A stretch of DNA of 64,000 nucleotides from Patescibacteria group bacterium (lineage in GTDB: Bacteria > Patescibacteriota > Patescibacteriia > UBA9934), in assembly GCA_049296775.1 (NCBI GenBank), contig JBAQTB010000001.1:160992-224991 (forward strand). The letters are read 5' to 3'. The position numbers and the translations under genes were made by a program. Below, one piece after another: positions 7,031-51,291 of the stretch (positions are counted from its first letter, which is position 1; the number at the start of each line of letters is the position of its first letter). The notes beneath the pieces are model-generated. The model worked only from the letters and a program-made list of their open reading frames with translations. It was not told the origin of the DNA and made no database searches.

Positions 7031-7576
7031 CTAGTGGCGACTAATCAGCTTTAGTGCTGATTTTACTCTGTCTGCCGGCGACTCGCCAGTGACATGTGGC
7101 AAAATAGCCACAATGTCCTCCTTAGAGTACCCCAAATTTTCCAAAGCATCAGTCACGTCATCACGAACTAAACTAGATGTATCTCTATCCACCAAAACAC
7201 CCTTTAAATCTAAAATGATTTTTTGTGCCGTTTTCTTGCCGACTCCAGAAATGCTCGTAAAAAAATCTAAATCTCCAGCTTGAATATGCCGACGCAGTGC
7301 TTCTGAAGTAGCCGCAGCTAGAATCTTTTGCCCAATCTTAGGCCCAACACCCTGAACGTCAGTCAAAAGGACGAATAATTCTTTTTCATCCCGACTACTA
7401 AAGCCGTAAAGATCATGTTTATCCTCACGAATGACTTCTGACAAATAAAACTTAACCCGCTCCCCCACCTCAGCGGTAACTCTGGTAGTAAAAATCCGAT
7501 AGCCTAAACCGGAGACGTTAACTATCACTGCATCCTGCTCATACTCAGCTAAAATTCCATCTATAAAAGCCAACAT
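7031..7576 (-). CDS. ruvA: Holliday junction branch migration protein RuvA
   Basis: 181 aa; RuvA N-terminal OB fold (GYRIFTT) and helix-hairpin-helix region (GVGPKIGQKILAA..ISGVGKKTAQKI). Confidence 0.85.
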   Translation of the reverse strand: MLAFIDGILAEYEQDAVIVNVSGLGYRIFTTRVTAEVGERVKFYLSEVIREDKHDLYGFSSRDEKELFVLLTDVQGVGPKIGQKILAAATSEALRRHIQAGDLDFFTSISGVGKKTAQKIILDLKGVLVDRDTSSLVRDDVTDALENLGYSKEDIVAILPHVTGESPADRVKSALKLISRH

Positions 7577-7588
7577 ACCTTTACACGC

Positions 7589-8788
7589 TTAATCCAAAGT
7601 CAACCTTGCTTGCCTAAGCTTAGCATACGCCAACCTAGCCCGCTCCTTCAAAAATGCGGTGTGCTCACCAAAATCGGCCTGGGCGTCTGGATTACGAATC
7701 ATGGCATACACCTGCGCCATCACCTGGCCACGCACTGGGCCGTAAGGCGTTTGCAGTAACGTAAAAATCGCCTGAGCTTCAAGACCCACCTCCGTCAGAA
7801 TCTCCTGTACAGCGTGCTTATGCCCACGGCGGGCGGCCGCTTCACGCGCAGCATGACGTTCTGGCATGGCCTCTCTTTCAGAGCGGAATAAGTTAAAAAT
7901 CACTTCAGTCTCCGCCACCGGCGTGCCGTCTGACGTGCTTAAACTCCCCAGAACTGCGTCCAAGAAAACAACTGCCGGTAATAAATCTAAAAATACCGGG
8001 ACATTTAAACCCGCCTTAGCCGCCACGCCAGCCAGCGCCTGGTACCTAACCGCATCTGGCCCCTGCGCAAAGGCGCGGATAGCCTCCATGTGCGCCCTAA
8101 TCAGCTCAGCTAATAAACGTGTATGCGTGTCACTAACTTGCAAAAAGTCTAAAACCGCCTGTCTGGTGGAAGCGTAAGTGTCAGATGCGCCCGCCCTGGC
8201 ATGATCGCCGTAATGCACGGTAATTTTGTAAGTAGCGAAAAAACTTTCTGCTGCATCTTTGGCCTGATGTGCGCGACGCAATTTGTCATAACGCGTTTTG
8301 TCAGCATCTGTAGCCAGTTTCTCGGCAGGGTTAGCAAAACCTTCCGCCTCGCCCAAGCTACCCGGCTCCGCCTGAAACATGACCGTATCGATCTTACCTA
8401 AATCATGGCAAGCGGCATAAGCGGCCAAAAAAGCGCCGTCCGAGGCCAAAGTGGTCTCTAGAGCCTGAAATTCTAAAGCAAAAACTTTATCCCGAGCAAA
8501 ATCCTCAATCTGGGCTAATGATTGACCAGCACTAAACGCTTCAACGCAAGCCAACATGCGTAAGACATGGCCCGACACCAAATCCGACTCAGCATGATGC
8601 GGTGGCGACTGGGGTGTAAGACGCAAACCGCCAAGGGGCGAGGCCACTTTGACTAAGTGATCCCATAACCGCTCAGCTCTAGCCAAAGCCGCGGGGTTAC
8701 AAGCAGTGTCCTGAAGCCAATCAAACAAATACACCGTCTCCACAGCAGGAGACGGGAGCTTTTTAGTCTGTAAATCGGAATTAAACAT
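7589..8788 (-). CDS. hypothetical protein (possible HD-like motif HDLGK)
   Basis: 399-aa ORF, coding-like composition; no confident family. Confidence 0.4.
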   Translation of the reverse strand: MFNSDLQTKKLPSPAVETVYLFDWLQDTACNPAALARAERLWDHLVKVASPLGGLRLTPQSPPHHAESDLVSGHVLRMLACVEAFSAGQSLAQIEDFARDKVFALEFQALETTLASDGAFLAAYAACHDLGKIDTVMFQAEPGSLGEAEGFANPAEKLATDADKTRYDKLRRAHQAKDAAESFFATYKITVHYGDHARAGASDTYASTRQAVLDFLQVSDTHTRLLAELIRAHMEAIRAFAQGPDAVRYQALAGVAAKAGLNVPVFLDLLPAVVFLDAVLGSLSTSDGTPVAETEVIFNLFRSEREAMPERHAAREAAARRGHKHAVQEILTEVGLEAQAIFTLLQTPYGPVRGQVMAQVYAMIRNPDAQADFGEHTAFLKERARLAYAKLRQARLTLD

Positions 8789-28287: not shown

Positions 28288-30873
28288 ATGAATGAGATTT
28301 TAGCTGGCTTCAGAAAGCATCAGTTTAAAAAAATAGAGGCTCATCCCGAGACCAAGCCTGCTACCAAAACTGAGAATCGCGAAACTGCCACTCAGCAAAT
28401 CGCTGAGCAAATGATAGACATAGCTAATGAATTTGGCGTTGAAGCCTTACAGATCATACTGGCTAAAATGCAGACTGCCTTAACTGAGGGTCGCGGACTA
28501 GAGGCTGGCGAACTGGCAGAAGTGATCAAAGAGAAAGCTACTCGATCAGAATTCCAAGAAACGGCACTGAAGGCCTTTGAAGGCCTTGGCTTTGTAGAGC
28601 AACTCGATAACGGCACCGTGATTGTGGATGATCAAAAGCTCTTATCTGAATTTAGCCTCAGTCAACTACGCGATGTCGCCGGTGAAGAACTGGCCAAGTT
28701 TGGTGATTTTAAAACAGATCGCATCACTTTTTTAGGCAATGCCTTTGCAGATAAACAGGTTATTTTAAAAAACGACTGGAAACAAAACCCAGAAACACAG
28801 CCAAAGCCGCTTTTCTATCTACCTAATACACGTCAAGAATCCTTGGACATAGATCGCATTCGCGCCGCTGACTTTCATTATGGTCTCTGGGAGATCCCCC
28901 AGGCCAGTAAAGGTGCCAAAGAGCGAATAGAAGAATTATCTCAACCTGCCAGCGCTACAGAGCAGAATTATTTCGAAACCTCACTCGCGGCTGTAATTTA
29001 TCATCCAAAATTTGGCGATGCTCAGCGTGACGAACAGGGCAAACTTCACACCTATCAATCTGGCGAAAAAAAGGCTATCTCGGGTCAGTGGCTTTGGGAT
29101 CAGGGCCTTAAAATGAAGTTTACAGATGGCAAGCGTGAATTGCGTAGTAACGCCAAGGAGGTCATTCAAGAGTTTGCACCAAATATTATCGAAAATAGCT
29201 TACTTCAAGCGCAAGATTTTGGTCTTGAAAGGTCAGTAAATCGATCTCAAGAAACAGCCCGAGTCAGCAACAACGGCGTGGTGAGTATCGGAGGTGTAAA
29301 GCATTACCTCGGACGAGCGTACGCTGGGCGTGCAATTCGTATCGATGAAATTGGTGATGGCACAGCCGCATTAGTAGAACTAGCTGACAACGGTCAGGGT
29401 ACTCCGGTGGGCCTGATCGATATCTACAAAAAAGGTGATCCACGCCTAAGTGAACGAAAAACTAACACAGGCTCATTCTTTGAGGCTGGGGGTAAAATTA
29501 CCCATCCTAGAGCTTTTTCAGAAGCTGAATATCAATCACCCAAACCAAACGAAGATCCAGACGTTTTCTTTGCTCGCAAACAAAAATTCGAAGCCTTTAA
29601 TGCTGTTTTAGATTTTGATAATGTATTAAAAAGCCAGGGTTATCCGGCCATGTTCAGTCTCTCGCCAGAACTTCAGGGCAACATCAGAAATCATGGCAAT
29701 CAAATTAACAAAAATAAACAACTATATCTTAATTTTATAGATAGCTATGGCAAACCCGGCTTAGAGATAATGGCCGCGGTGATAGATAATAGCTCAATTG
29801 CAGAAAAAACCCTTGAAACCGCCCTTGCGTTGCCGGAGACAGAGCGAAATACACTCATTCCTAGACTCCATGAAGCCCTTCTAGCTCGCCATGTGGCCTT
29901 AAACGAATTAAAGGCTCTGCAGCTGGCAAACAAAGTGACGGATTTAGAAGTTAGAAAATTTACCTTTGAAATTAATCGCCGTGTCACCTCCCTACTTACA
30001 GCCGCCGAGGATAGCGCCGGGATTAGAGAAGGTTTAAATACAACTAACAAGTCAGAGGTCCTTAAACTCTTAGTAAAACAAGGGCAAGAGCTGGCTTTAT
30101 TTGCTAATATTTTTAAGGATGCCTTCAAGGGTAGTCCGGAAAACGTAATGGAAGGACTAAAGGGGGTGGAATTAAAAGTCGAGACTTGCGCAGAACTTTC
30201 AGACCTGGATAAAACTGCGATTTTAGATATTCACGCACAAAACTGGAAACAAAAACCGGATGTTTATCCAAAACTCCGCAAAGCGCTTGAAATAGCGCTA
30301 GAGTCAAACACTTCAAAAGCCTACGTGATGAAAAATGGTCATAACGTCACCGCCTTTATGCGGTTTGATCAAGTGGGCAATGACCCTAATCAACTGTACG
30401 CGGCCTCATTATTAGTTAAACCTGGGCTAAGAGGTTCGGCCATAGGAGAATCCTTCATGCGTGCCGCAATGGATGAATGTGCCGAAGATCATATTTTAAA
30501 GGCTGACTTCTTCCCTGAATTTATAGTAGGCACAACCTATGTAGAACAAATGGGATGGGTAATCACCGGTGTGGAGGAAGTGGATATTGGCAATGGTAAA
30601 ACGGCTAAACAGTTCATGATGGAACGTAATGATCGTAAAAACTTAGATTATGTAGGCAAGTCAAATAAGGATCTATCTAAGTCTAAGGGTCTAAACATAC
30701 AAACCATTGATGTACGCAACGGCACAGCCGAACTAATTCAAGCCGTAGAACAGGCCCAAGTCAAAGGCCAAGTAGTTACTCGTTATTTTGCTGATCGTAA
30801 AAACCCTAATCTGCGGACAATGGTGTTTGAGAATCGTCAGGATGAACAGATGGTACCTCAATCAAAGACATAG
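28288..30873 (+). CDS. large orphan protein (861 aa) with a C-terminal GNAT-like acetyltransferase motif
   Basis: Long ORF, no TM; C-terminal VKPGLRGSAIGESFMRAAMDE resembles GNAT motif A. Confidence 0.5.
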   Translation: MNEILAGFRKHQFKKIEAHPETKPATKTENRETATQQIAEQMIDIANEFGVEALQIILAKMQTALTEGRGLEAGELAEVIKEKATRSEFQETALKAFEGLGFVEQLDNGTVIVDDQKLLSEFSLSQLRDVAGEELAKFGDFKTDRITFLGNAFADKQVILKNDWKQNPETQPKPLFYLPNTRQESLDIDRIRAADFHYGLWEIPQASKGAKERIEELSQPASATEQNYFETSLAAVIYHPKFGDAQRDEQGKLHTYQSGEKKAISGQWLWDQGLKMKFTDGKRELRSNAKEVIQEFAPNIIENSLLQAQDFGLERSVNRSQETARVSNNGVVSIGGVKHYLGRAYAGRAIRIDEIGDGTAALVELADNGQGTPVGLIDIYKKGDPRLSERKTNTGSFFEAGGKITHPRAFSEAEYQSPKPNEDPDVFFARKQKFEAFNAVLDFDNVLKSQGYPAMFSLSPELQGNIRNHGNQINKNKQLYLNFIDSYGKPGLEIMAAVIDNSSIAEKTLETALALPETERNTLIPRLHEALLARHVALNELKALQLANKVTDLEVRKFTFEINRRVTSLLTAAEDSAGIREGLNTTNKSEVLKLLVKQGQELALFANIFKDAFKGSPENVMEGLKGVELKVETCAELSDLDKTAILDIHAQNWKQKPDVYPKLRKALEIALESNTSKAYVMKNGHNVTAFMRFDQVGNDPNQLYAASLLVKPGLRGSAIGESFMRAAMDECAEDHILKADFFPEFIVGTTYVEQMGWVITGVEEVDIGNGKTAKQFMMERNDRKNLDYVGKSNKDLSKSKGLNIQTIDVRNGTAELIQAVEQAQVKGQVVTRYFADRKNPNLRTMVFENRQDEQMVPQSKT

Positions 30874-31624
30874 GCTTGCCGCCGCCTAATTGCCAAAAAT
30901 ACTCAAACTGTGCTCGGTGTAAAGCTGCAATATTTTCGTCCTCTATCAAAACAGAGATTAATTTATTTGGTCTCAAGGTCAGATAGCTCACTTTATTATT
31001 ATAAACCTCGGTAGCCGTTTTAAAGCCAGCCGGGAAATCCTTTAAATAAACTACTTCTGTATACGGGGTAGATTGAGCCGCAATAAAATCTCGACTAGCC
31101 TGGCTATCTGGCAGAATTAACCGTTTTATAATCTTCTTTGCGACTCGTTGCTTTAAATACCCCCGGTTAATCTCGGCGATTACACCGATAACTGCCGCTG
31201 TGTCCAAAAAAGTCATAATTCCGTTAGTTGCCGCTAAAGAATCCTCCAAGACCTCTTTAAAACCCTCAGGGCCCTCAAACACCTGAATAGCTGGGCGGCC
31301 GGTGGTTAAATTGAAGGTTGAGGTGAGTTTTGGGAGTTCAGCCTTGAATTCAGCCTCTAAACGGTCTGTTTCAAGGCGTTTGGCCTCTACTAAGGAGGCT
31401 AATTTGGTTGGTTCGGCGGCCCGGTAGATCTGCAGTTTACCGGCCGTAACCGTGGCCAATCCCCTTGAAACTAGCGCGGTAAGCAAATTATAGACATTTC
31501 CACGCCCTAATCCTGAGTCTGGAACCAAATCACTGGCCTTAGACTCCCCTTTTAACAGGAGAAGTTCATAGAGTTTGGCCTCATTAGCAGATAAACCAAG
31601 TTTTTGCAGGATATGGGTATACAT
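30806..31624 (-). CDS. TrmB-family transcriptional regulator (paralog 1)
   Basis: N-terminal wHTH LGLSANEAKLYELLLLKGESKASDL...GRGNVYNLLTALVSRGL; similar to the CDS at 44673-45437. Confidence 0.65.
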   Translation of the reverse strand: MYTHILQKLGLSANEAKLYELLLLKGESKASDLVPDSGLGRGNVYNLLTALVSRGLATVTAGKLQIYRAAEPTKLASLVEAKRLETDRLEAEFKAELPKLTSTFNLTTGRPAIQVFEGPEGFKEVLEDSLAATNGIMTFLDTAAVIGVIAEINRGYLKQRVAKKIIKRLILPDSQASRDFIAAQSTPYTEVVYLKDFPAGFKTATEVYNNKVSYLTLRPNKLISVLIEDENIAALHRAQFEYFWQLGGGKPMSLIEVPSVHPDDSQTPLSAD

Positions 31625-31793
31625 ATATATAGGGTAAAGGTATCAGATTTTAGAAGTTAGAGATTAGAGTTTGAGGGTTAAATATCCTCCGCATGGCCCT
31701 AGTATACTCTTTACTGTCATATTGGGAATGGCAGGGTGTGGATAGATTCATGGCTTATCTTAGCCAAAATCTAGCATACGTGCCAGGGCGTGA

Positions 31794-31822
31794 TTGACAA
31801 AAGCTGGAAAAAATGCTACAAT
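31794..31822 (+). promoter_or_regulatory. consensus sigma70 promoter (TTGACA - 17 nt - TGcTACAAT, extended -10)
   Basis: TTGACA at 31794-31799 and TACAAT at 31817-31822 preceded by TG; no ORF follows on the + strand. Confidence 0.5.
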
Positions 31823-31829
31823 GGTTTTA

Positions 31830-32844
31830 CGAAGATGAGAACAGGAAGACTTCTAGCCTCTTCGCCCAACAGACTACATTAACTGAAACGGCGACAGACT
31901 GAACCTTCCAACAATTAGAGAGAGCCCTAGTCCACGGGTAAATGTGGATCGATGAAAGTCCCGTCTATATGTAAGTATAGATAGCGGAAGTTTCATAAGG
32001 CAGGTTTGCGTATCTCTCAAAAAGAAGACACGTAAACCTGCCTTTGTTTGTTTGTCCGAGAGAGGACGAACAAGTGAGGCGCTCGTACTGATGGGTCTTT
32101 GAGAAACGGTTCCCGGCCTCGTCTGGGAGTATCCACTAAGTGGAGAGAGACCATTTCTCGAACAACTATCAGCTCTATGGATTCCTACTTCGCTCTCCCC
32201 TCTGGGATTGAGCCTAGACAGGACCACGTCGGATTGATCAGGACCTACGTTAGCTCGATTTCGATCGAGTAGATACACGGTCAATCCCCCATTGCATCCC
32301 ATAAGAATGCAATGTGGTAATGAGTGCGAGACGGCCCAAGCCGTCTCCCCTCCAAAGCTCCGCAAGGAGCGAAGGGGGGAAGATACTTGGACTGTTCTCA
32401 CTCCTTATCACTAAAGGAGAGAGAAGCCCCTTAACAATTGAATAACAAGAGTTTGATCATCGATATCTCGATGTGTCGACTATGGAATCTCCTAGCCGCT
32501 TCCGACGCTCTGCGCCGATGAAGCACCCGCTAGACCCATGGCATCGCACGTTCTGATCCTTTGATCCTAGCCTCATAAGCCGCTTGTTTTAAACATCCGG
32601 CCCGTCCTGAAGTGACGCGCAAGCGTCTACTTCAGGGAGGAACTCTCAGTGGCTGTGACCTTGCTCTCCCCCTTAATAAGGGGGAGTTAAGAGGGGGTCG
32701 TAGCTAGTGAGAGCAGCAGAATCCCCAACGAAGTTCGAGCGCAAGCGAGAACGAAGTGGGATTGTGCTGCGCTAGTTTGTCAGGTACATCGCCGTTCAAA
32801 ACGGGCTAAGAGATTAACTTCTCATGCCCAAGAACAGCACTCGA
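31830..32844 (+). ncRNA. candidate large structured non-coding RNA (unclassified)
   Basis: ~1 kb with no credible ORF on either strand; several perfect hairpins with stable tetraloops (CTCGAT-TTCG-ATCGAG; GCTCC-GCAA-GGAGC; CCTGAAGT..GACGC-GCAA-GCGTC..ACTTCAGG; GAGACGGC-CCAA-GCCGTCTC; GGGATTGA...TCAATCCC). Confidence 0.35.
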
Positions 32845-32981
32845 GAGAGTGCACGGCAATGAATCTGACAGCAGTTTCCAGCCCAGGGATGTCGGCAATG
32901 TTGTCGATTTCCCAAACGCTGGAACACATTCCCTTTGGGGAGGTCGATTGCAAGACCTAAAATTGCAAAATGGAGTCTTAA
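32845..32981 (+). promoter_or_regulatory. conserved ~135-bp 5' leader, copy A (operator-like dyad + hairpin)
   Basis: ~90% identical to 36320-36454; contains TCGGCAATGTTGTCGA (32892-32907) and CCC-UUUG-GGG hairpin; ends at ATGACC start codon. Confidence 0.6.
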
Positions 32982-33539
32982 ATGACCCTCAATAACAGCA
33001 GCAGCGTCACCTTCCTCTCGGCAGCGGAGCTCAGGCTCCGCTGCGAAAACGAACTCCAGAAGGCCGAGGAGAACCTCAGTCGTCTGGAGTTCGAGCAGAT
33101 GGAAGCGGATGAAAAACTGTATGTCGCGACACAAGATCTGTCCGATCATCGGGCGGACGAGCTCGCACTGATGAATGAGATCAAGAACTTGAAGGAAGCA
33201 ATCAGCGCCAACCGTTGCCGCTCGGCGCAACAGATCGAAACGATGCTGAGTGACAAAGAGGAGCTGAAAATGGCGGAGGCGCGCCTCGTCTCCGCCACCG
33301 CCACCCGTCGCACCGCGGCGGAGGAGAAGATCAAGGCCTACAACCTGCTCCTGGCCGCCTCGGCGGCCACCCGCGCCGCGGAGCGGCGCGTCAAAGCTGC
33401 CATGTTCAATTCACGCCGTGCTGGGATGGAATTTGGCACGGACACCCGTGCCGGGGCCCCCACCGCCCGTCGGGCGGCGAAGGCCGCCAAGGCGGAGAAG
33501 GACCGCGCGATGCGGTCCCAAATGAAGGGCAAGAAGTAG
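32982..33539 (+). CDS. coiled-coil protein with basic C-terminal tail (island gene, unknown function)
   Basis: 185 aa; GC3-rich codons; heptad-like E/K/A-rich sequence; N-terminus MTLNNSS.. paralogous to MTHSFIN.. of the 36455 gene. Confidence 0.5.
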   Translation: MTLNNSSSVTFLSAAELRLRCENELQKAEENLSRLEFEQMEADEKLYVATQDLSDHRADELALMNEIKNLKEAISANRCRSAQQIETMLSDKEELKMAEARLVSATATRRTAAEEKIKAYNLLLAASAATRAAERRVKAAMFNSRRAGMEFGTDTRAGAPTARRAAKAAKAEKDRAMRSQMKGKK

Positions 33540-34419
33540 CCCTACCATAGTCAGACATTGCAGCTGACTTAAAGGTCTGCAAAAGGTTTCTGACTTTTAG
33601 ATAAAGTCAGCGATTGGTCCCCGCACCTGGACTACGCGTCGAGCGTTATCTCAACCAAGCCCGGAGCATAAAATGCCGGACAGCAAGAGGCGCGAGTAAC
33701 ACGCGCCAGTAACAGAAAAATTTGTTACGCCTCCCGCTTGAGGCCCAACCACCACTCTACCTCTTTGAAGCGGCAAAGATGTAGACGCTAATCACGCCAG
33801 ATTCTGCATCGAGCAGTTTCTCGATACATACATCAGGAGTTGGTCATCATGACCAAATTGAGTAAGTAGTCGCGTTGATGGGCGACGATAAAAGCGCCAT
33901 CAACCCTGCGTTGCTCTGGGGCCGAGCAACAGGATTGTGACTCCTTGATCACATGTCGGTAGTACATAACTATCATGCACACATGCACAGGTTGAGAGCT
34001 CGCGCTATGCACATCGCGTAGAGCTCTCCTTGATTGAATCACTGATTGAAAAATCGGAGGTTCTGAAAGGAAAAAACAAACACCCCCAATCAGTCTACGA
34101 ATAGTTTTTAAATTTTGTCTCAGCGCTGCGGAAACTATTAGCTTAGCTAGTTGTTTTAACAGCTCTCGGGAGAGAGCCAAGTTCAACCGGTGACTCTAGC
34201 ATAGTGCTAGGGAAAGCCGGACACAGAACGCCTAAATTGAAACCTTCAGATAAATGTTCAGACGTTAGTCGGTCTTGTTCGGGCAACCGAGCCAATCCGC
34301 CGTCAATGTGCAGAGATGCACAGCATTCAGCTGAATAAGTTTCTCTCTAGGAAAAACCTAAAATCCTGGGCGATTATCGTTCAGGTCGGCAGGCATGCCG
34401 GCAACCATATGGAGGCAAT

Positions 34420-35319
34420 ATGCGTATCAACTTCGTGTTCGGTCAGGTCGTGTCGTTCGAATCCCTCGCCGAGAACACCGTCGCGCTCGACGGTGCGGTC
34501 CAGGGGCCGAAGCTCGACCCCAAGACCCGTCGTTACAGCTTCGATCACCACGCGGATTGCATTCGTTTGATCACCCTGGCCACGTGCCAGCAGGTGTTCG
34601 CCGCGATCTTCCTCGGTGGGTTGATCGTCGACAACGAGACCACGGTGGTCATCAACGAGTTGGACGCGGACACGATCTTGTCCGTCTGGCTGTTGAAGAA
34701 CCCGGGTAGGGTCAACGAGCCGGCCGTGAAGGAGCTCGTGGACCGCGTGGGCTACACCGACTCCCACGGCCCGGCGTTCGCGCCGCACTGGCTCCACTTC
34801 CAACTCTCCAGCTGGAAGAAAGAGGATCAGACCATGGCCTTCCTCGAGAAGTGCCTCGGCCTGATCGACCAGTTTTTCGCCGGCGAGCTGAAGGAGCCGG
34901 CCGCGCGCCCGACGCGTGAGTCGATCGGATTCGGCTGGCACCCGCTGAAGGGTTGGGCGGAGGTCCAGACCCAGAATGGGTTCGGAGACCTGTACAAGTC
35001 TGGGTTCCTGGCGGGGTTCCTCGCGGAGCCCCAGGCGGACGGGACGGTGACCTACACGGTCGCCAAGAAGTCCGATCTGGTCGACTTGCCGGTCGGCCCG
35101 AGCCACGTTGACCGGAACGCCGACCCGGCGAGCTACCGGTCGGACACGGTCCTCGGCAGCCTCGCACTCCTCGAGCTCGAGGCTAACCCCTCCCAGGCGC
35201 ACAAGGCGAACTGGGGCGGAGGATCCTCAGTCGGCGGCAGCTGCCGCAACGAGGACAAGTCGGCCTCCCGGTTGACCCCCGAGCAGGTGCTCGAGGTGTT
35301 TAAGCGGTTCACCAAGTAG
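34420..35319 (+). CDS. hypothetical protein (island gene, GC3-rich)
   Basis: 299 aa; very strong third-position GC bias supports this frame over the Arg-rich antisense ORFs 34381..35202 and 34712..35167. Confidence 0.55.
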   Translation: MRINFVFGQVVSFESLAENTVALDGAVQGPKLDPKTRRYSFDHHADCIRLITLATCQQVFAAIFLGGLIVDNETTVVINELDADTILSVWLLKNPGRVNEPAVKELVDRVGYTDSHGPAFAPHWLHFQLSSWKKEDQTMAFLEKCLGLIDQFFAGELKEPAARPTRESIGFGWHPLKGWAEVQTQNGFGDLYKSGFLAGFLAEPQADGTVTYTVAKKSDLVDLPVGPSHVDRNADPASYRSDTVLGSLALLELEANPSQAHKANWGGGSSVGGSCRNEDKSASRLTPEQVLEVFKRFTK

Positions 35320-35671
35320 CGCGGGAGTCCTGGCTTGTATACCTAGGACGATCCCCCCTTTGTTCCTAACGGAACTCCGGAGGGATATAAAAACGTATAC
35401 AAAAAATCGCCGGGTGGAGTTGCTGCACAGCACTCCCCCGGCTCGCGAATCCCGATTCGACTGCACGTCAATCGGGATTCCCTTAACTGAGTTCAGAAGT
35501 TTAACTTGTGAATTGAGTTGAGGATGTACAACAAATCATCCTGCTTCTGAAACCATCTGCACGATGTGTTTCAGGGATCCTTAACTAACTTCTTGATGCC
35601 AAGCTCGAGGAGTTAGTTGAGGATCCGCTCAACATGCCCAAATCTAGCTGTGGAATGTCTCCGCAGCGCGT

Positions 35672-35932
35672 TTGTGTATATGGCGACCTCTGGGAGACAT
35701 CATGCGATGCTTTGTTGTTGAAACCTCCGGCGAATTGCCGGAAAAAAATGAGTTGAAAGACCCAGATGAATTCTGGGAATTGGAGGACGGCCTGGCCGTC
35801 CTCCTCCTCGTGCCCCGGGACCAATGTCCCGGGGAGTTCACCGCCTTTCCGGCGGTGATCGAGATTGAAGTCGTCGGGCAATGGCCCGACGGAAGTTCGA
35901 AAAAGAAAATTTGGGCTGTCGTCAAAACCTGA
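35672..35932 (+). CDS. small acidic hypothetical protein (uncertain)
   Basis: 86-aa ORF in the island; moderate coding look. Confidence 0.3.
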   Translation: MCIWRPLGDIMRCFVVETSGELPEKNELKDPDEFWELEDGLAVLLLVPRDQCPGEFTAFPAVIEIEVVGQWPDGSSKKKIWAVVKT

Positions 35933-36319
35933 CATTAGCCCAGCGCCCGCTCGCTGCCGGGCGATAAATATAGCAGTGCTTCAGAGGCTGTACGCACATA
36001 CGGCCTCTGACTACCACGTCTTTAAACTGACGTGGTCTCATCTGAGATTTTGAGTTAATGACTCGAAGTATCAGATGAGGACTCACAAACTGACATGCGC
36101 CAGCGAGACATATTTGTCCGCACACATGAAAGTAGTTTTCTCTCCCTACACCAACCCACTAGCAGGATTTTTCTATGTTTTCGAGAGTGGAATTACTTCT
36201 CTCTCGTAATCTATCTCTTGTTTACATAAAGAGATGTCGCTGTTGGGTTGCTGTGGGGACCATAAATCACCGGATCCCCCGGTGCTTTGGCGTTTCCACG
36301 GAAATGGACATGGACTCGA

Positions 36320-36454
36320 TAGAGTGCGTGTCCATACATCTGAGCAGTTTCCAGCCCAGGGATTTCGACAATGTTGTCGATTTCCTGAAAGCTGGAACAC
36401 ATTCCCTTCGGGGAGGTCGATTGCAAGACCTAAAATTGCAAGTTGGAGTCTCAA
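36320..36454 (+). promoter_or_regulatory. conserved ~135-bp 5' leader, copy B
   Basis: Perfect 16-bp dyad TCGACAATGTTGTCGA (36365-36380); CCC-UUCG-GGG hairpin (36404-36413); ends at ATGACC start. Confidence 0.6.
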
Positions 36455-36805
36455 ATGACCCATAGCTTCATTAATTTGAGTGAAGTTCGGAACGAGATCT
36501 GGTCGGTCTCGGTCAAAATGGAGAGGATTGCGAAAGTTCTGTGTCAGAAGAACCTTCGCGCCGAGCTGGAGGCCGCCCTCGAGGGGAAGGCCGCCGCCCC
36601 CCACGACCTAGAGGCGATTTTACGCCTCAACGCCGCCAGGAGAAATTTGGCGGCGGCGTTGGAGAGGGCGGGATCTTGCGATCCCGAGGCACTCCGCGAG
36701 GAAGAAAAAGTCCTCGCAGCGGCCCTCGCGGGGCTGCTGGAACGCGAGGCCCGCTGGGCCTCCGTGGTCGAGAATGAGGAGGCCGAAGCGCGTCTCCTGA
36801 GCTAA
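36455..36805 (+). CDS. coiled-coil protein (island gene, paralog of the 32982 gene at its N-terminus)
   Basis: Conserved ATGACC start after the leader repeat; the track's 36443 start is a TTG in the leader; A/E/R-rich helical sequence. Confidence 0.5.
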   Translation: MTHSFINLSEVRNEIWSVSVKMERIAKVLCQKNLRAELEAALEGKAAAPHDLEAILRLNAARRNLAAALERAGSCDPEALREEEKVLAAALAGLLEREARWASVVENEEAEARLLS

Positions 36806-36995
36806 AGCGTCGTTGGGATGCTGTGAACACCTCAGTTCACAGCATCCCAAATCTACAAAACATTAAAAATATTTTCATCGATAGAAATTTGCTTACCGTC
36901 ATAAGCAGGTTTCTCTCGAGGAAAAGTTCCTGAGAGACAATAACCGGCCCTACCCTGGGCCACGGCAGCCATGCCGATCAGCACGGAGGTGCACA

Positions 36996-38966
36996 ATGGC
37001 GAATAATTCTCACGTGTCTGTCTGCTGGGGATCCCCGGATGACCGGGGACTCGTCGGTCAGCTCGAGGGGGGCGGGCGCAAGCTCGTCCGCCTGGATAAC
37101 AAGGCTAAAATTCCGGCCGATATGCGGCCGGAACCCAACACGGTTCAGCCGTGTCGGGTGTCGCACGACACGGCTCCGGACGCCCCAGGGCGCGGCGTCA
37201 TGTTCGTGGTACCGATCGGCCCGGCGGTCGATCAAAAAACTGCCCGTGAACGGCGGATGGCTCAGAACCTGTCAGAGGTTCGGGCCGAGTGGAAGGCCGC
37301 CTGGCGACGGGCAGTGGTCTCCGACCTGACCAACTTGGTCAGCGGGTACAAGGCGAACATCGGGTACGACACCCGGTGGAACGTCGGAAGAGAGAATCTT
37401 GAGCCGCAAAACCCGCTGTTGCGGGTTGTTGATGACCAGGCGGGAGTCTGGACTAAGCCCTGTCAAAACGGGGTGTATATCTGGGAAGAGTGCGTTCTCG
37501 TCTTGCCCGAATTGGGCCAAGGCGAGGAGCTCTCCAAGCGGCTACTGGCCGCCTGGCGACAGAGCTCCTCCCTAAACGTGGGGCTCGAGAGGCTGACCGA
37601 TCTCGGTCTCAGCCTCACCGGACCCATCGACCGCACGGTCACGGTTAACGTACAGAATTACGTTATCGTGAACTGGAGCGGAGTGGTCAACGGTGAGCGC
37701 ATCACCATCGCCGAGAGGTGGTTCAAACCGGGAGACGGCGAAACTGGGGATGAAGACATCCCCGAGGTTGCCACCGCTTTGGCAGTATGGTGCAAGAAAG
37801 TCGTGGACGATTGTAGTCGTGATGAGTCCTGGGACACACTGGTCTCAGGGGTCGTGACACTGAGCTCGCACGTCACACCGACGTTCGAGTATCTGTCGCC
37901 AGACGAGCGCGGCACGCGCACGGGCGGTGGAAACTCAATCAACGTGGTGCATGTCGACGGCCAAAAAGTGGGCAATGTATCAGCCCTTTTCTGGCCCGAG
38001 GCGCAGGCCTTCTTTGGCCTGGTAGAGGGCGGCCATCACCCCGGGCTGTCGGCCCGTCAGCTCCGGGCGTTCAACCTCGCCCTATCTGACTGGACCACCA
38101 GCGGGCGACTGGGCCCTCGTGGTCGCGCAGCCATGCTGGCTGAAGCTGGGGTCAATTACGACCCAGCAGCAGTCATGGCCGCCGGAAAAACTGACAAAGC
38201 GCGGCGTGACTTTGAGGCTGAGGCCCAAAAAGTCGCCACACAGGCTGCGGAGGCGGCGGCCTTGAAAATCGCCGCCGCAGAAATCAGTAACGCGGCCAAA
38301 ACAGTTATGGCAGCGAAGCACTTCAGGTGTTTTGCGCCAACGCTGCAGGCTTTGCTGACCAGTCTGGTCAGCGAGGCCAATCGGCCATTCGTTGAAGATT
38401 ACTGGCTCTCCTGGGCGCAACGCGTGATGCTGCAAATCCAGGAAGCCACACCGGCCGCAATTGCGGCAGCTGGCCAGGAAGAGCAAGGCGAAATCCTTGC
38501 TAACTTTCAGGCATGGAAAAAGCGCAGCGGCGGGCCCACTAACAATGGACAGGGCTGGGTAATCCAACCGGACGGCTCGTGTCGAGAGCCGGACCGCATG
38601 GACAAACCCCGGCCTCGCCATGATGAGGGCACCCAACATTGGGACCTCGTCAGTGGTCCGGAACTGGCAATCTCGTGGAGCAGAGCGCACTCTGGCGCTC
38701 CCCACGAGTTCGCGGTGGCCAAGATGCCCACCCGCGACCGGATCACAAAGGCGCAACGGGCAACCGTTGTGCGTCTCCAAACGGAGATCGCAGAAGCCGG
38801 AGGCGACTGTGGTAACTGCTGGGGGCTTACCCCAGTCATCGCGGCTCCCGCACTCGCTCCGCGAGTAACGGCGCCAGCCTCACCGTCACCTGAGGTGGCG
38901 AAAGCGAAAGTATCAGCGGCTGATGTCGAAAAGCTTAGAGAAGCTCTCGGCATCAAGCGCCGCTAA
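36996..38966 (+). CDS. large orphan protein (up to 656 aa; true start may be an internal Met)
   Basis: GC3-rich frame; Ala-rich helical central region; C-terminal CGNC and Pro/Ala-rich tail; antisense ORFs 38082..38780 and 38507..38956 judged spurious. Confidence 0.5.
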   Translation: MANNSHVSVCWGSPDDRGLVGQLEGGGRKLVRLDNKAKIPADMRPEPNTVQPCRVSHDTAPDAPGRGVMFVVPIGPAVDQKTARERRMAQNLSEVRAEWKAAWRRAVVSDLTNLVSGYKANIGYDTRWNVGRENLEPQNPLLRVVDDQAGVWTKPCQNGVYIWEECVLVLPELGQGEELSKRLLAAWRQSSSLNVGLERLTDLGLSLTGPIDRTVTVNVQNYVIVNWSGVVNGERITIAERWFKPGDGETGDEDIPEVATALAVWCKKVVDDCSRDESWDTLVSGVVTLSSHVTPTFEYLSPDERGTRTGGGNSINVVHVDGQKVGNVSALFWPEAQAFFGLVEGGHHPGLSARQLRAFNLALSDWTTSGRLGPRGRAAMLAEAGVNYDPAAVMAAGKTDKARRDFEAEAQKVATQAAEAAALKIAAAEISNAAKTVMAAKHFRCFAPTLQALLTSLVSEANRPFVEDYWLSWAQRVMLQIQEATPAAIAAAGQEEQGEILANFQAWKKRSGGPTNNGQGWVIQPDGSCREPDRMDKPRPRHDEGTQHWDLVSGPELAISWSRAHSGAPHEFAVAKMPTRDRITKAQRATVVRLQTEIAEAGGDCGNCWGLTPVIAAPALAPRVTAPASPSPEVAKAKVSAADVEKLREALGIKRR

Positions 38967-39165
38967 AATCTCGGACGTCGCTCGTCGCACAACGACGACG
39001 TCCCCTTATCTGATAGCTTCAGGCTTCTCTCTCCCTGGAGTTATCAGATGAGGACCAGTGAATTCCGTTCAGTTTTAAATCATGGTGATTTGGAGCTTGC
39101 GGAAAACTGGAAATCACGGTCTTCAAATGACCGATCAACCGCGCCAATAGGCGCAAGGAGGCCTC

Positions 39166-39876
39166 ATGGTCATCGAAAAGTTTTGGACCGTTGTCGCGGG
39201 GAAGATTGGAACCGCCCATACTGGGCGGGACGGCGTCGTGCGGGACTTTCGTCCCGCCGAGATCGAGTTCTGCTCGATGAACGGAACGGTCTTATTGAAA
39301 CCGCGAGACGGCGTCACGCCAAGGGAGACATTGAAACTCTCCCGGCGTGAGTTGTCCCGTGAGCCGCTGGAAGGCGGTGAGCGGGATCGCATCACCTTCG
39401 AGGTCTTCGCGACCTTCATGGAGGTGGAGATCTCAGAGGTCAGGACCGAAGAAGTCCTGACGGCTCTCGGCAAGGAGCGTGCCGAGCAGCGGTCCGCTCT
39501 TGAAAAGCAGAGCTGGGCTGATGCCCAGCTGTTGAGAAAGGCTCAAGAGCCCGAGGACCGCCAAGCCCTCGAAAACTGGATCACGGCCCGACTGGCCGAC
39601 CCACTCATGGGCGGCCAGATGCAGGTTAATCACCTGCTCCGCAAGCCCAGTCGGGCGCGGTGGGCCGTCGGTGCCCTCGTGAGCCGATGGCTGCGGTGGG
39701 CCCCGCTAGAGGGACAGTTCAACCATCGCAACGATGTGTTGAAAGCTCTCCAGGTCCGCTCCGGATCTACGGAGTACTACGCCGGAGGGCAGCTGGTGGC
39801 AAGCCGGGTGGCGGAGGTGCTCGAAGAGCGCCGCGCCGTTCGCAAGGCCGAATGGCTCGCGCGTAACAACAAGTAA
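39166..39876 (+). CDS. hypothetical protein (island gene)
   Basis: 236 aa; RBS AAGGAGG 6 nt before ATG; GC3-rich. Confidence 0.55.
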   Translation: MVIEKFWTVVAGKIGTAHTGRDGVVRDFRPAEIEFCSMNGTVLLKPRDGVTPRETLKLSRRELSREPLEGGERDRITFEVFATFMEVEISEVRTEEVLTALGKERAEQRSALEKQSWADAQLLRKAQEPEDRQALENWITARLADPLMGGQMQVNHLLRKPSRARWAVGALVSRWLRWAPLEGQFNHRNDVLKALQVRSGSTEYYAGGQLVASRVAEVLEERRAVRKAEWLARNNK

Positions 39877-40047
39877 ACCTCCGGCTTCTTTCTTGCTTTC
39901 TGAGCCTGATCAGTAAAGTAATTCGAATGTCGCTTGCACCTGCGGCATTCGCTCGTCACGTCGTTTACATCCGACGTGACCTCATCCGATACCTTGAGAT
40001 TCTCTCTCGCTCGAGGTATCAGATCAGCTCATGTGTCAGCATGAAAA

Positions 40048-40085
40048 ATACGATCGATCCAAAACTGGAACGATCGTATTTTTTG
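40048..40085. terminator. bidirectional hairpin terminator at the right edge of the GC-rich island
   Basis: ATACGATCG...CGATCGTAT 9-bp stem followed by TTTTTTG; abuts the VanW stop. Confidence 0.5.
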
Positions 40086-40086
40086 T

Positions 40087-40977
40087 TTATTGCATGATCA
40101 CGGTAGCGCCGGGAGGGGGCAGATATTTCATCTCAGAATGATTCTCGCATACCAGAGTATCTCTCAAGAGATTGCCGGTACGACGATCGATAACTTGTTG
40201 AAAAAGTTTATTTTCTCTGTAAAACTTACCGGTTTTTTGGTCGTGAATAAACTGGTGATCTCGTTCAATGATCGAATAAGCAACCTTAGGCTCATGACTG
40301 GCCCGGAGTTCGCCACGCAGAAATTTATCATCAACCCAAACTACAAGCTCAAAATCCGTTTCCGTGTCATTCCGGAATTGGAGATCGACGTAATTATAGA
40401 AAATCGTGGCACCACTCGCAAAAGGCAAAACCCTTCCCGAATCCGGGAAAGCATCAAAGCTATGACGGTACCGTTCTGTCACTGTAAGCGGAGAATGCAA
40501 CGCCATCCAGTAAAGTAAGTTAGCCATCTGACACAGCCCTCCCCCCACACCTTCAATCACTTCTCCATTGGAAAGCAGGATCCCTGGCAGAAAACCACGC
40601 TGAGCTGTAGGGCGACCCACTAACTTCCAGAGTGAAAAAGTTTCACCGGGCTTAATAATTATCTTGGTGATCTCTTTGGCAGCCAATTGCAGATTCGTGA
40701 TCTTATTGTGTTGTAAACGCATGTCAGTGTTACCCAGCTTGCGCAATAACAATGACTTATGCGAGTAAACTTTAAACGGTAAAGGTGCCTGACTACGCTC
40801 ACTAGCGTAGCAGGTAGCGCCAGTACGCCAAACAAACTGACGCTGCAAGCGATGATGCTCAATAGCCAGCTGACGAATGACTGGATTTTTCTTTAATGTC
40901 GATAACATAAAACGGCTAAGTATACTCAAAAAAGCAACTTTTGTCAATCGCTTACCTTGTATAACGCTACCGTACAA
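40087..40977 (-). CDS. VanW-family protein
   Basis: VanW core GVGGGLCQMANLLYWMALHS; N-terminal hydrophobic segment. Confidence 0.75.
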   Translation of the reverse strand: MYGSVIQGKRLTKVAFLSILSRFMLSTLKKNPVIRQLAIEHHRLQRQFVWRTGATCYASERSQAPLPFKVYSHKSLLLRKLGNTDMRLQHNKITNLQLAAKEITKIIIKPGETFSLWKLVGRPTAQRGFLPGILLSNGEVIEGVGGGLCQMANLLYWMALHSPLTVTERYRHSFDAFPDSGRVLPFASGATIFYNYVDLQFRNDTETDFELVVWVDDKFLRGELRASHEPKVAYSIIERDHQFIHDQKTGKFYRENKLFQQVIDRRTGNLLRDTLVCENHSEMKYLPPPGATVIMQ

Positions 40978-44672: not shown

Positions 44673-45437
44673 TTAGTCAACTAAACGCTCCCATAAGGCT
44701 AAAAACAAGCCCCTCTGGGTCACGTAAATGCCGGGGTTTTCTATAATCAAACCCACCAACTCACCATCTTTATCTAAAAAGATATTCGCCACCTTGCCAT
44801 GATAGATCAAAATGTAGGTCGGGGTGCCCTCTAAACCAGAAATATATTTACGTTCATCCAAACCGGCCGTTTTGCCACCCTTACCAATGGAAATATTCTT
44901 AACGTGAATACCAGCCGCCAAACGCTTCTCCGTATAATCATGAAAAGAGTTGTACAAACCGGCCTCACGGACTGAACTTGAAGAATACACAAAATATTCC
45001 GGCTTGTCCGCCTTCACTACCGTCTCTAAAACATCTTCTAAAATTGCTCTAACGCCTTCCGGACCCTCATACATCCGCGCCGCCGGCTGCCGGGTACCCG
45101 CCGAGTAACTAGCCTCTAACTCAGCCACTACGTGGGTTAAATCACGGGTAGCCTTATCGATCTCAGCTGCGCGTGCCCGGGCCAATTCCTGCAATCTAGC
45201 GGGCGGTGCAGCCACAAAGAACTGCTTAGTTTCACGATTATAAAAATGGACTAACTCCAAAACTTGTAAATGTTTCAACGTGTCGTAAACCGTGCCGCGA
45301 TTAATCCCAGTCAAACTCGCCAATTGTCGCACCGAACCCGGACCCTCCCGCAACAAGGTCAGATACAACGTCACGTCCTTGGGAGACAAACCTAGCTCCC
45401 CCAATACCTCTTCCAAAGGACGTGTTAAAACGCTCAT
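44673..45437 (-). CDS. TrmB-family transcriptional regulator (paralog 2)
   Basis: wHTH LGLSPKDVTLYLTLLREGPGSVRQLASLTGINRGTVYDTLKHL; same architecture as the 30806 gene. Confidence 0.65.
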   Translation of the reverse strand: MSVLTRPLEEVLGELGLSPKDVTLYLTLLREGPGSVRQLASLTGINRGTVYDTLKHLQVLELVHFYNRETKQFFVAAPPARLQELARARAAEIDKATRDLTHVVAELEASYSAGTRQPAARMYEGPEGVRAILEDVLETVVKADKPEYFVYSSSSVREAGLYNSFHDYTEKRLAAGIHVKNISIGKGGKTAGLDERKYISGLEGTPTYILIYHGKVANIFLDKDGELVGLIIENPGIYVTQRGLFLALWERLVD

Positions 45438-46775: not shown

Positions 46776-46896
46776 AGTCTCATTGTCCTGGCGACAACCT
46801 ACTCTCGCCACTCTTGACTACCATCGGCTCATGCAGGCTTAACGACCGTGTTCGAGATGGGAACGGGTGTGGCCCTGCAGAAAGTGTCACCAAGAC
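46776..46896 (-). rRNA. rrf: 5S ribosomal RNA
   Basis: Reverse complement contains CCGATGGTAGT and GCGAGAGTAGG 5S motifs; ends approximate. Confidence 0.8.
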
Positions 46897-47094
46897 AATA
46901 CTACCTTTTATCGGAAACAATCCAAGTTTTTCATCTACGTTGTCAGAAACCTCCGTCGGACTCACCATAGGATTTACCTACACCTCGTCCTTACTCGGTT
47001 TCTTCCTAGTAGCTGATAAAACTTAATTATTTCCGTCGTAATGACTCGTTATAGAGGAAAGTAACCATCATTGCTGCGCTCAACTTTTGAGCCG

Positions 47095-50148
<3,054 letters not shown>

Positions 50149-50847: not shown

Positions 50848-51291
50848 TTAGCATGACCTGAGCAGGTCGCCCCTGCGGGCCTCCTCCGACGCCCCCTTAT
50901 TCCCCCTCTTCAACAGAGGGGGCGTGCTGGCTCGTGAATGGATCGATGACTTAAGGCGTTGTAAAACGTTATCGATATCGGTAAAAATTTCGTCGTTAGT
51001 AAAACGGATAGTTAATAAACCAAGGCCTGCAAAATAGGCCGTCCGTTCATGGTCGTAAACGCGGGCCTCAAGCGAGTTGTGATAACCGCCATCAACCTCA
51101 ATGACCAACCGCAAACTGGGTACATAAAAATCTGCAATATACTTACCAATGTTGTACTGACGTCTAAACACCGTATCCAAAACCTGCCGACTACGCACAC
51201 GATTCCAAAACATCTGTTCAGCCTTAGTTGGTTGATTTCTTAAATCTCGGCGCCGTTCTTTGCTCCATGCTTGATTAAATATCTTCGTCAT
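50848..51291 (-). CDS. DUF559 endonuclease-domain protein (Vsr-like fold)
   Basis: DFYVPSLRLVIEVDGGYH DUF559 signature; framed by inverted repeats. Confidence 0.7.
   Translation of the reverse strand: MTKIFNQAWSKERRRDLRNQPTKAEQMFWNRVRSRQVLDTVFRRQYNIGKYIADFYVPSLRLVIEVDGGYHNSLEARVYDHERTAYFAGLGLLTIRFTNDEIFTDIDNVLQRLKSSIHSRASTPPLLKRGNKGASEEARRGDLLRSC
50888..50924. repeat. left inverted repeat (24-bp perfect core GACGCCCCCTTATTCCCCCTCTTC + hairpin) flanking the DUF559 gene
   Basis: Reverse complement matches 51330-51353 exactly; adjacent CCCCCTCTT-caac-AGAGGGGG hairpin. Confidence 0.8.

Follow-up and report, generated by a model that had tools for sequence, protein, structure and literature searches.

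Architecture of the locus

We analysed 64,000 nucleotides (nt) of a Patescibacteria group bacterium (assembly GCA_049296775.1, contig JBAQTB010000001.1, positions 160,992 to 224,991 of the forward strand), hereafter the window, in which a block of GC-rich genes at 32982-40085 stands out from its surroundings. The block is part of a larger locus, made up of a regulator, a palindrome, a promoter, a structured RNA and a hairpin-punctuated array of co-oriented genes that are rich in GC at third codon positions (GC3) and vary in content between lineages. We consider it probable (roughly 0.6) that the block is the cargo of a conserved, lineage-wide locus of Patescibacteria, and neither a one-off foreign insert nor a mis-assembly. 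The first-pass annotation of this sequence had described the block and overlooked the head and the punctuation of the locus, namely the promoter and RNA (31625-32980), a 119-nt repeat and the hairpin family. The head of the locus contains the following features, in window coordinates:

28288-30873, + strand: 861-aa protein with a GNAT domain (Pfam Acetyltransf_1) and host-like GC (GC3 0.39)
30806-31624, - strand: TrmB-family regulator (Pfam TrmB, E 2e-15), divergent from the RNA promoter
31751-31766, unstranded: palindrome TGGCTTATCTTAGCCA, probable operator, 27 nt upstream of the -35 element
31794-31822, + strand: sigma-70 promoter TTGACA-17-TACAAT with a TG extension, 11 of 12 consensus positions
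31829-32981, + strand: structured leader RNA (type A), about 1.15 kb, with five GAGAGAG motifs, running into the Shine-Dalgarno (SD) sequence and ATG of the first open reading frame (ORF)
31997-32044, + strand: long conserved hairpin in the leader, AAGGCAGGUUUGCGUAUCUCUC...ACGUAAACCUGCCUU, with a UCUCUC-containing apex (helix 3)
32314-32411, + strand: covarying helix on the invariant GUGGUAAYGAGUGCG ... CAYUCCUUAUCAC (helices 4-5)

The promoter at 31794-31822 is the only strong one within 31.5-40.3 kb, and it is kept as TTGACA-N15-TGGTAnnnT in eight loci. All six loci with a type A leader have the palindrome, TGGCTwAynTTAGCyA, at an unchanging distance of 27 nt upstream of TTGACA; besides the window, these are L003 (position 2483), L127 (3883), L129 (2623, reverse complement), L132 (7838) and L137 (6299), L numbers being our handles for loci and contigs. 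It is probably an operator, with TrmB assigned as its binder by adjacency only. A TrmB gene occupies the matching position in L003, L004, L127, L129, L130, L132, L135 and L137, and homologues of the 861-aa protein adjoin TrmB in seven loci. In the window the two ORFs are convergent and overlap by 68 nt (30806-30873), as a pair that is syntenic in those seven loci. A second TrmB paralogue at 44673-45437 brackets the block on its other side, as had been noticed before.

Composition of the GC-rich block

The block has a GC content of 57.4%, compared with 48.9% for the remainder of the window. Its composition is mosaic: coding stretches reach 0.57-0.67 in 500-nt windows, while the spacers at 33.75-34.25 kb and 35.25-36.5 kb drop back to 0.46-0.51. 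Five of its six + strand ORFs have a GC of 0.609-0.646, the 86-aa ORF being at 0.536. The 60-65% GC that the first-pass annotation gave for the whole block is therefore true inside the ORFs and too high for the block, and its near-saturated GC3 describes the 299-aa ORF only: the GC3 values of the 185-, 299-, 86-, 120-, 656- and 236-aa ORFs are 0.796, 0.900, 0.621, 0.736, 0.683 and 0.755, respectively, against 0.38-0.63 for 45 other ORFs of the window.

That the composition is unlike the rest of the window was borne out by every measure we computed, from sliding-window GC and GC3 to codon usage and tetranucleotides. From the background to the block, TTA falls from 0.24 to 0.01, CTC rises from 0.15 to 0.40 and AAG from 0.39 to 0.62, with third-position C+G going from 0.50 to 0.75. 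The tetranucleotide distance of the coding parts is 0.46-0.71, compared with 0.226 +/- 0.031 for 2-kb background windows. The GC-richness is limited to coding modules: neither the spacers nor the leader share it, nor do the hairpins, whose GC is 0.41-0.61, or the toxin-antitoxin genes that relatives carry.

The leader is a large structured RNA

The leader, whose start at 31829 was placed from the -10 element, is conserved at 62-75% nucleotide identity between loci over its ~1.15 kb. Insertions and deletions are mostly not multiples of three, and every reading frame contains 14-23 stops. Using RNAalifold on four full-length leaders, we obtained 269 pairs in 40 helices, with compensatory double changes in 67 of the 269; pairing was kept in 94.5% of cells, against 37-41% when partners were slid by 1-3 columns, and none of the shuffles came up to these values. 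When nine core sequences were aligned, with two more divergent types among them, we counted compensatory changes in 24 of 45 pairs, a value that none of 500 shuffles attained, and helices 4-5 showed them in 15 of 23. The folding z-score of the core was -7.9 relative to dinucleotide shuffles. According to these results (indels, stops, covariation and folding energy), 31829-32981 is a structured RNA and not a coding sequence, and it was assigned to the + strand because of its G.U pairs and promoter.

Searches of Rfam 15 gave no gathering-score match in 31.6-40.1 kb, and at E<10 only chance microRNA or small nucleolar RNA matches of at most 23 bits. The leader matches none of the Rfam covariance models for GOLLD, ROOL, OLE, HEARO, group II introns, RNase P, transfer-messenger RNA (tmRNA) or riboswitches. 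It is a new large structured RNA with no Rfam match, and in the literature we found no specific account of such a large noncoding RNA (ncRNA), or of such a GC-rich island, from Patescibacteria, the Candidate Phyla Radiation (CPR). To our knowledge, bacterial structured RNAs longer than 1 kb other than ribosomal RNA are extremely rare, and each new large class (OLE, GOLLD, ROOL, HEARO) has opened new biology. With its conserved promoter, operator and dedicated regulator, the leader offers a new large RNA class that is directly testable.

Matches to the leader were obtained in six loci with nhmmer and in eight with a covariance model of its 5' domain. The leader pattern had no match in IMG/VR, and an 18-nt degenerate pattern scan of genome contigs returned chance matches only. 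The last 36 nt consist of a UUGCAA hairpin and GGAG, followed by the ATG, and are nearly identical in L129; no consensus terminator was found between RNA and first ORF in any locus inspected. Regarding the GAGAGAG motif, the window contains 13 copies on both strands, five of them in the 1.15-kb leader and 9 of the 13 in this locus.

Two related loci deserve mention here. In L133, 6905-7230 holds two tandem modules, each with a promoter and a 5' domain, of a divergent type C leader, and a GC-rich ORF of 63 codons lies inside the same gap (7960-8150). In L004, a run of Ns at 7097-7205 inside the type B RNA is flanked by a duplicated stretch of about 60 nt, a scaffolding gap at a repeat, so the type B RNA of this locus is incompletely known.

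Several other identities were considered and rejected. RNase P was set aside on the ground that the GAAAGUCC-like stretch is not kept across the RNA family, a group II intron for want of a domain V and of any Rfam match, a TIGR-Tas array for want of tandem short repeats, and a diversity-generating retroelement or retron for want of a reverse transcriptase. A - strand ORF at 31874-32401 was dismissed as a gene, its apparent homology being nucleotide conservation of the RNA.

Hairpins, direct repeat and terminator

The array is punctuated by a family of intergenic hairpins, detected with a covariance model (R1) that we built from six copies, and by other repeats and palindromes:

32870-32988, + strand: 119-nt direct repeat, copy 1, with the leader 3' end, UUGCAA hairpin, SD sequence and start codon
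35573-35632, + strand: intergenic hairpin variant CCUUAACUAAC...GUUAGUUGAGGAUCC, R1 29.8 bits
36030-36090, + strand: intergenic hairpin CUCAUCUGAG...UAUCAGAUGAGGAC, R1 65 bits on + versus 39.5 on -
36343-36461, + strand: 119-nt direct repeat, copy 2, with a partial leader 3' domain from about 36311
36813-36850, + strand: perfect 16-bp hairpin with no U-run
38998-39063, + strand: intergenic hairpin with CUUCUCUCUC loop, R1 78 bits on + versus 28.5 on -, three G.U pairs on +
39974-40038, + strand: intergenic hairpin with UUCUCUCUCG loop, R1 73.7 bits on + versus 30.4 on -
40044-40083, unstranded: bidirectional terminator-like hairpin with 18-nt arms flanked by an A-run and a T-run, closing the array
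40087-40977, - strand: VanW, adjoining the terminator-like hairpin

The family consensus is CCUCAUCYGAU, a variable apex and AUCAGAUGAGGACCGAU. R1 found 21 copies on the + strand (four in the window, seven in L003, five in L002, four in L132 and one in L137), all of them in intergenic positions of islands, and none in 741 kb of unrelated control loci. Stem covariation was 0.407 compared with 0.05-0.09 in slid controls, in an alignment fitted by the model itself. A 14-mer from the hairpin had 120 chance matches in IMG/VR, and the covariance model confirmed 0 of the 80 loci tested.

Copies are near-identical within a genome and different between genomes, and, as homologous genes show, a hairpin is not inherited along with the gene upstream of it. 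The apical loop is CUCUCUC in 11 of the 21, complementary to the GAGAGAG of the leader, and hairpins with this loop were found only in islands with type A RNA or on contigs not long enough to include the leader. Within the 3' arm, an SD-like GAGGA precedes an AUG, which in some copies is the real start codon and in others opens an upstream ORF (uORF) of five codons. In L003, a conserved uORF of this length stands directly 3' of two hairpins (ATGAAGTTTTATCCGTAA at 4357-4374 and ATGAAATGCTATTCGTAA at 8294-8311), with its start codon after the GAGGA of the 3' arm.

The two copies of the 119-nt repeat are 92% identical, and one precedes each of the Ala-rich ORFs. The hairpin at 40044-40083 agrees with the bidirectional terminator previously placed next to VanW.

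Outside the locus, R1 gave two weak matches in the window (16-20 bits, one per strand), at 49.84-49.90 kb within the 23S rRNA gene. That gene (47102-50129, - strand) stands together with a 5S rRNA gene (46786-46894, - strand) in 46786-50129, with no adjoining 16S rRNA gene; its match spans 3028 nt for a 2925-nt model and may hold insertions of about 100 nt. About 0.7 kb upstream of it lies an ORF resembling DUF559 and restriction endonucleases (50848-51291, - strand).

Proteins encoded by the array

All six ORFs described by the first-pass annotation are present on the + strand at the sizes it gave:

32982-33539, + strand: 185-aa protein, Ala/Glu/Arg/Lys-rich with a basic tail, GC3 0.80
33540-34419, + strand: 880-nt non-coding spacer separating the 185-aa gene from the 299-aa gene, GC host-like
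34420-35319, + strand: 299-aa protein, probable divergent DHH-like metal-dependent phosphoesterase by sequence and model, GC3 0.90
35672-35932, + strand: 86-aa protein, homologue at L003 7593-7868
36443-36805, + strand: 120-aa protein, Ala/Glu/Leu/Arg-rich, start inside repeat copy 2, GC3 0.74
36996-38966, + strand: 656-aa protein with a putative S1/OB-like N-terminus, a conserved core of about 390 aa, helices rich in Ala, a 'GWVIxPDG' domain and a basic tail at the C-terminus
39166-39876, + strand: 236-aa protein, homologues at L003 8371-9009 and L130 15255-15977

Searches of Pfam, PHROGs, NCBIfam and PADLOC gave no match for any of the six. In PHROGs nothing scored below E 0.029, with no phage structural, replication or integration genes; the anti-phage defence models of PADLOC had zero matches, and sequence searches of the PDB with the cargo proteins found none either. 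The earlier description of these proteins as orphans is correct in that no curated family was matched, but not in the sense of lacking relatives: at least 145 homologues exist for the 299-aa protein, and about 15 representative clusters for the 656-aa protein.

The 299-aa family has the invariant motifs FDHH, NDxDADT and WGGG. The AlphaFold2 model of our protein has a predicted local distance difference test (pLDDT) score of 95, and a Foldseek search with it returned nothing significant. By this model and the motifs, it is probably a divergent DHH-like phosphoesterase. The closest known system is that of the DHH/DHHA1 phosphoesterases (NrnA, PAP phosphatase, GdpP, PggH, RecJ), from which it departs: it has no Pfam match, and in place of the canonical order of motifs I-IV and GGGH, its DHH (residues 42-44) comes before NDxDADT (79-85). 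Relatives from outside CPR are at most 40% identical, the gene context of one in Sericytochromatia was uninformative, and tblastn against annotated phages gave a single weak, unannotated match.

Distant relatives of the 299-aa protein (28-45% identity) are also found on seven viral IMG/VR contigs of 131-409 kb, the size of jumbo phages, and of 27-64% GC (L139-L145). In six of the seven (L140-L145) the gene has roughly the GC of its surroundings, and GC-richness is therefore not intrinsic to the family; L139, unlike these, shows the patchy GC pattern of a CPR island.

Regarding the 656-aa protein, a word-index search found three homologues (P0002-P0004) with 37-57% identity. In the AlphaFold2 model of its N-terminal domain the pLDDT is 64-86 per 10-residue block over residues 1-80, and residues ~1-75 may form an S1/OB-like domain. 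The C-terminal domain is common to a protein of L136 and the tail to helicase-adjacent proteins; one relative has both, as in proteins adjacent or fused to DEAH helicases. The tail recurs in otherwise different large island proteins as a Pro/Ala-rich linker followed by [DE]-L-x-x-L-x-x-x-[FLW]-G-x-K-[KR]-[KR], at 38900-38966 of the window, in P0002 and P0003, and in L132 (13936-15540), L133 (13511-15289) and L136 (4255-5844). From its sequence, it looks like a docking or targeting peptide.

The 86-aa protein is 41% identical to its L003 homologue (tblastn, E 2e-12), and a word-indexed search found no homologues of the 236-aa protein beyond L003 and L130. The 185-aa and 120-aa proteins were assigned as coiled coils on composition only. 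An Ala-rich first ORF also follows the RNA in L129, L127, L003 and L132. In the spacer after the 185-aa gene, which may harbour another RNA element, we noted a sixth GAGAGAG (34170), and 64 nt of the spacer (33889-33952) match L003 4143-4205 at 81% identity.

The same locus in other Patescibacteria

A common layout was found in at least ten independent Patescibacteria assemblies, including L003, L004, L127, L129, L130/131, L132, L133, L135 and L137: a large GNAT protein (750-916 aa), TrmB on the opposite strand, an ORF-free gap of 1.1-1.7 kb and co-oriented GC-rich genes. The TrmB orthologues are only 23-64% identical, which marks the hosts as deeply divergent. In these loci the GC of the cargo exceeds that of the flanks by 10-25 points, with a GC3 of 0.74-0.93 in hosts at 0.24-0.53; for homologues of the 299-aa protein in seven genomes, GC3 is 0.76-0.93 and that of the flanks 0.24-0.53. 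Toxin-antitoxin modules are present in islands of relatives and absent from this window, and the PIN toxin genes inside islands have a GC3 of 0.37-0.40. High GC3 is thus a property of the cargo gene pool, in hosts of 39-54% GC.

Four of the six cargo proteins have homologues at the same locus in other Patescibacteria. Those of the 86-, 236- and 656-aa proteins are all found in L003, in a different gene order. The tree of the 299-aa protein is incongruent with that of TrmB: by TrmB, L132 is the locus closest to the window (64%), and by the 299-aa protein it is among the most distant (56%). Judging from this incongruence and the variable gene order, the cargo appears to be exchanged horizontally among Patescibacteria. 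A survey of horizontal gene transfer in Patescibacteria describes many genomic islands, with most transfers within the phylum, and this locus is not among them (PMC12455944).

Concerning the assembly, the junction between TrmB, the gap and GC-rich ORFs recurs in L003, L004, L127, L129, L130, L132, L135 and L137, and the right junction of the window is spanned by an independent Logan contig (SRR28012402) that runs through the 656-aa gene, the 236-aa gene, VanW, YkuD and beyond. Two Logan unitigs of the same accession end within the copies of the 119-nt repeat, L266 covering 32939-36439 of the window and L001 beginning at 36412. The 3.4 kb enclosed by the repeats form a separate unitig, which fits a tandem chromosomal arrangement and an excised circle alike.

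Interpretation

If the GC-rich block is the cargo of a conserved Patescibacteria locus, TrmB would gate one long transcript from the promoter at 31794-31822, and the leader would fold into a large scaffold or regulatory RNA. The hairpins would act at the RNA level: since their 3' arm would sequester the SD-like GAGGA and the AUG, they could serve, between cistrons, in RNA processing, stabilisation or the control of translation. The leader may touch them through GAGAGAG:CUCUCUC pairing, and they may also delimit the gene modules that are shuffled from lineage to lineage. The encoded proteins look nucleic-acid-directed, and given putative DHH-like and S1/OB-fold proteins and Ala-rich ones (one of them basic-tailed), as well as the DEAH/HA2 helicases of relatives, an RNA-protein module is most likely. 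A role in genetic conflict is weakly suggested by the hypervariability of the locus, by how rare the families are and by the enrichment of toxin-antitoxin modules in relatives.

What remains of the foreign island proposed by the first-pass annotation is a compositional island with apparently exchanged cargo, which is neither specific to this genome nor chimeric. GC-rich islands of this type should not be discarded as contamination or chimeras when metagenome-assembled genomes (MAGs) are curated. As to the bias itself, it may come from a foreign GC-rich pool, from GC-biased gene conversion at a recombination hotspot, or from codon or mRNA selection, and the locus is a natural test case for separating the foreign pool, gene conversion and selection at codon or mRNA level. 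One set of gene families at a GC3 of 0.75-0.93, in hosts whose own GC3 is 0.24-0.53, makes it a CPR-wide puzzle.

Several points weigh against a conserved locus in which an RNA leads its cargo. The 5'-domain model finds no RNA in L130, L133, L135, L136 and L139; the ORF-free gaps of L130, L135 and L136 hold no copy that we could detect, and the L133 leader is a divergent form, recognised by eye only. With the RNA detected by model in only eight loci, its link with the cargo is therefore frequent and not universal. The structures used to count covariation were derived from the same small alignments (4-9 sequences), and co-transcription of RNA and genes is inferred solely from the absent consensus terminator. 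The model leaves the cause of the GC bias of the cargo unexplained. Besides, since both copies of the 119-nt repeat interrupt the Logan unitigs, support for the left junction of the window comes from the MAG contig and from synteny in other genomes. Finally, the RNA could simply be a core-genome gene beside an integration hotspot.

A more specific version of the conserved locus, which we put forward tentatively and at well below even odds, is an RNA-anchored array of gene cassettes, where the TrmB-gated ~1.15-kb RNA is the platform for circulating, hairpin-delimited, GC3-saturated modules. If true, the array would work like an integron whose organiser is an RNA instead of an integrase, and the RNA would be a scaffold, a master regulator through GAGAGAG:CUCUCUC contacts or perhaps a partner in hairpin recombination. 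Such an integrase-less, integron-like array could reveal how accessory functions are exchanged in reduced genomes of episymbionts that depend on DNA uptake.

One could argue that the locus is instead an integron-like cassette platform with a single promoter, in which the hairpins are DNA recombination sites analogous to attC and the recombinase is encoded elsewhere. GC-rich cassettes without promoters of their own, from a pool common to Patescibacteria, would be inserted, excised and shuffled at these sites, and all would be expressed from that promoter. We regard this as unlikely, if a little less so than the rivals that follow. In its favour are one strong promoter followed by co-oriented small ORFs with no known function, and imperfect palindromes with conserved ends and a variable centre that bound each gene or gene pair. 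The hairpins are homogenised per genome, like the attC sites of sedentary chromosomal integrons, and toxin-antitoxin modules of other composition are interspersed in relatives. Common families are ordered differently in the window and L003, the phylogeny of the cargo is incongruent with that of the flanks, and an integrase fragment lies at the end of the L133 island. Against it, no tyrosine recombinase is present beside the array or among the 36 window ORFs scanned (Phage_integrase and rve domains included), in agreement with the first-pass annotation, which had seen no integrase or transposase. The hairpin ends, CCTCATC and GATGAGG, are unlike the R''/R' boxes of attC (RYYYAAC / GTTRRRY), the G.U pairs and far higher + strand scores fit an RNA on the sense strand, and the hairpin does not travel with the gene that it follows.

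In the second rival, the RNA would be a core-genome ncRNA gene in its own right, with a 3' end used as an integration hotspot in the way of tRNA or tmRNA genes, unrelated mobile DNA as cargo and the 119-nt repeat as an att-like scar. The repeat of the RNA 3' end does flank a 3.47-kb segment with three genes, the unitigs break exactly at both of its copies, the RNA has a host-like GC that the cargo does not share, and cargo content differs among relatives. However, an integrase is absent, and since both Ala-rich ORFs have their SD sequence and start codon within the repeat, duplication of an expression module may account for it. The co-occurrence of CUCUCUC hairpins with a type A leader bearing the complementary GAGAGAG is not explained, and the terminator that would separate an independent RNA from the first ORF is lacking in every locus inspected. 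Taken together, we find this account quite improbable.

A recent transfer from a high-GC donor, such as an actinobacterial host, had been the favoured idea of the first-pass annotation. The cargo does resemble a 60-65% GC genome in GC3 and codon usage, and no curated family was matched. However, the same families, hairpins and leader sit at the same locus in many divergent Patescibacteria (TrmB 23-64% identical), including relatives of four of the six proteins. All close homologues belong to Patescibacteria, uncultured metagenomes or unassigned metagenome contigs, non-CPR sequences are at most 40% identical, and no close homologue of the cargo was found in a high-GC organism outside CPR. Close homologues at the same locus in related CPR genomes speak against a recent foreign origin, and we give it very little credence. 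The other possibility raised there, a chimeric assembly join, is the weakest of all and hardly credible: the change in composition is abrupt and the repeat at 32.9 and 36.4 kb fragments unitig assemblies, but the junction from RNA to GC-rich ORF is reproduced in at least eight independent assemblies from four sources (JGI, ENA, NCBI and Logan), the right junction is spanned by a Logan contig, and in the window as well as in L129 the leader 3' end passes seamlessly into the SD sequence and start codon of the first GC-rich ORF.

Comparison with known systems

The closest formal analogue of the locus would be a sedentary chromosomal integron, with two defining features, IntI and the R boxes, failing. 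As in these integrons and in clusters of attC sites lacking an integrase (CALINs), one strong promoter at the end of the array is followed by hairpins between co-oriented, compositionally deviant ORFs that mostly have no known function. Genes bounded by palindromes, repeats homogenised within a genome and interspersed toxin-antitoxin modules are further likenesses to sedentary chromosomal integrons, together with a conserved chromosomal position whose content varies between relatives. In contrast, the 36 scanned ORFs include no IntI near the array, no attI is present, and the platform consists of TrmB and a 1.15-kb structured RNA, the promoter being flanked by TrmB and the GNAT-domain protein. 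In the 21 copies, the hairpin ends are CCTCATCYGAT and ATCAGATGAGGAC, which by comparison of consensus strings are not the R boxes of attC; unlike attC, the hairpins look optimised as RNA on the sense strand and contain an SD-like sequence. The spacers between genes are also long here, up to 880 nt.

Islands anchored at tRNA or tmRNA genes share a block of foreign composition directly 3' of a structured RNA, and a repeat of the RNA 3' end (here 119 nt) inside the block. This locus differs from them in lacking an integrase, in the translation start borne by its repeat, in an anchor that is neither tRNA nor tmRNA, and in the hairpin family that punctuates its interior. Regarding the hairpins, phage early operons with RNase III hairpins and repetitive extragenic palindromic or bacterial interspersed mosaic elements also have imperfect, strand-specific, repeated stem-loops of about 20 bp between the cistrons of one strongly promoted transcript. 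Unlike them, our hairpins have CUCUCUC apical loops and ends that are common across genomes and stand in a chromosomal context with no PHROG match; processing at them is putative. Nor does the locus look like a prophage or phage satellite: no PHROG was matched below E 0.029, the leader pattern is absent from IMG/VR, and the hairpin covariance model confirmed none of the 80 loci.

The leader itself is best compared with GOLLD, ROOL, OLE, HEARO/omega RNA and raiA, which are likewise very large, densely structured, covarying ncRNAs found by comparative genomics. They too have variable or mobile neighbourhoods, and short motifs recur in them through which tertiary or intermolecular contacts could form. 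Unlike these RNAs, whose models it does not match, the leader is longer (~1.15 kb), is so far restricted to Patescibacteria, and forms the 5' end of a gene array with its own dedicated TrmB and operator.

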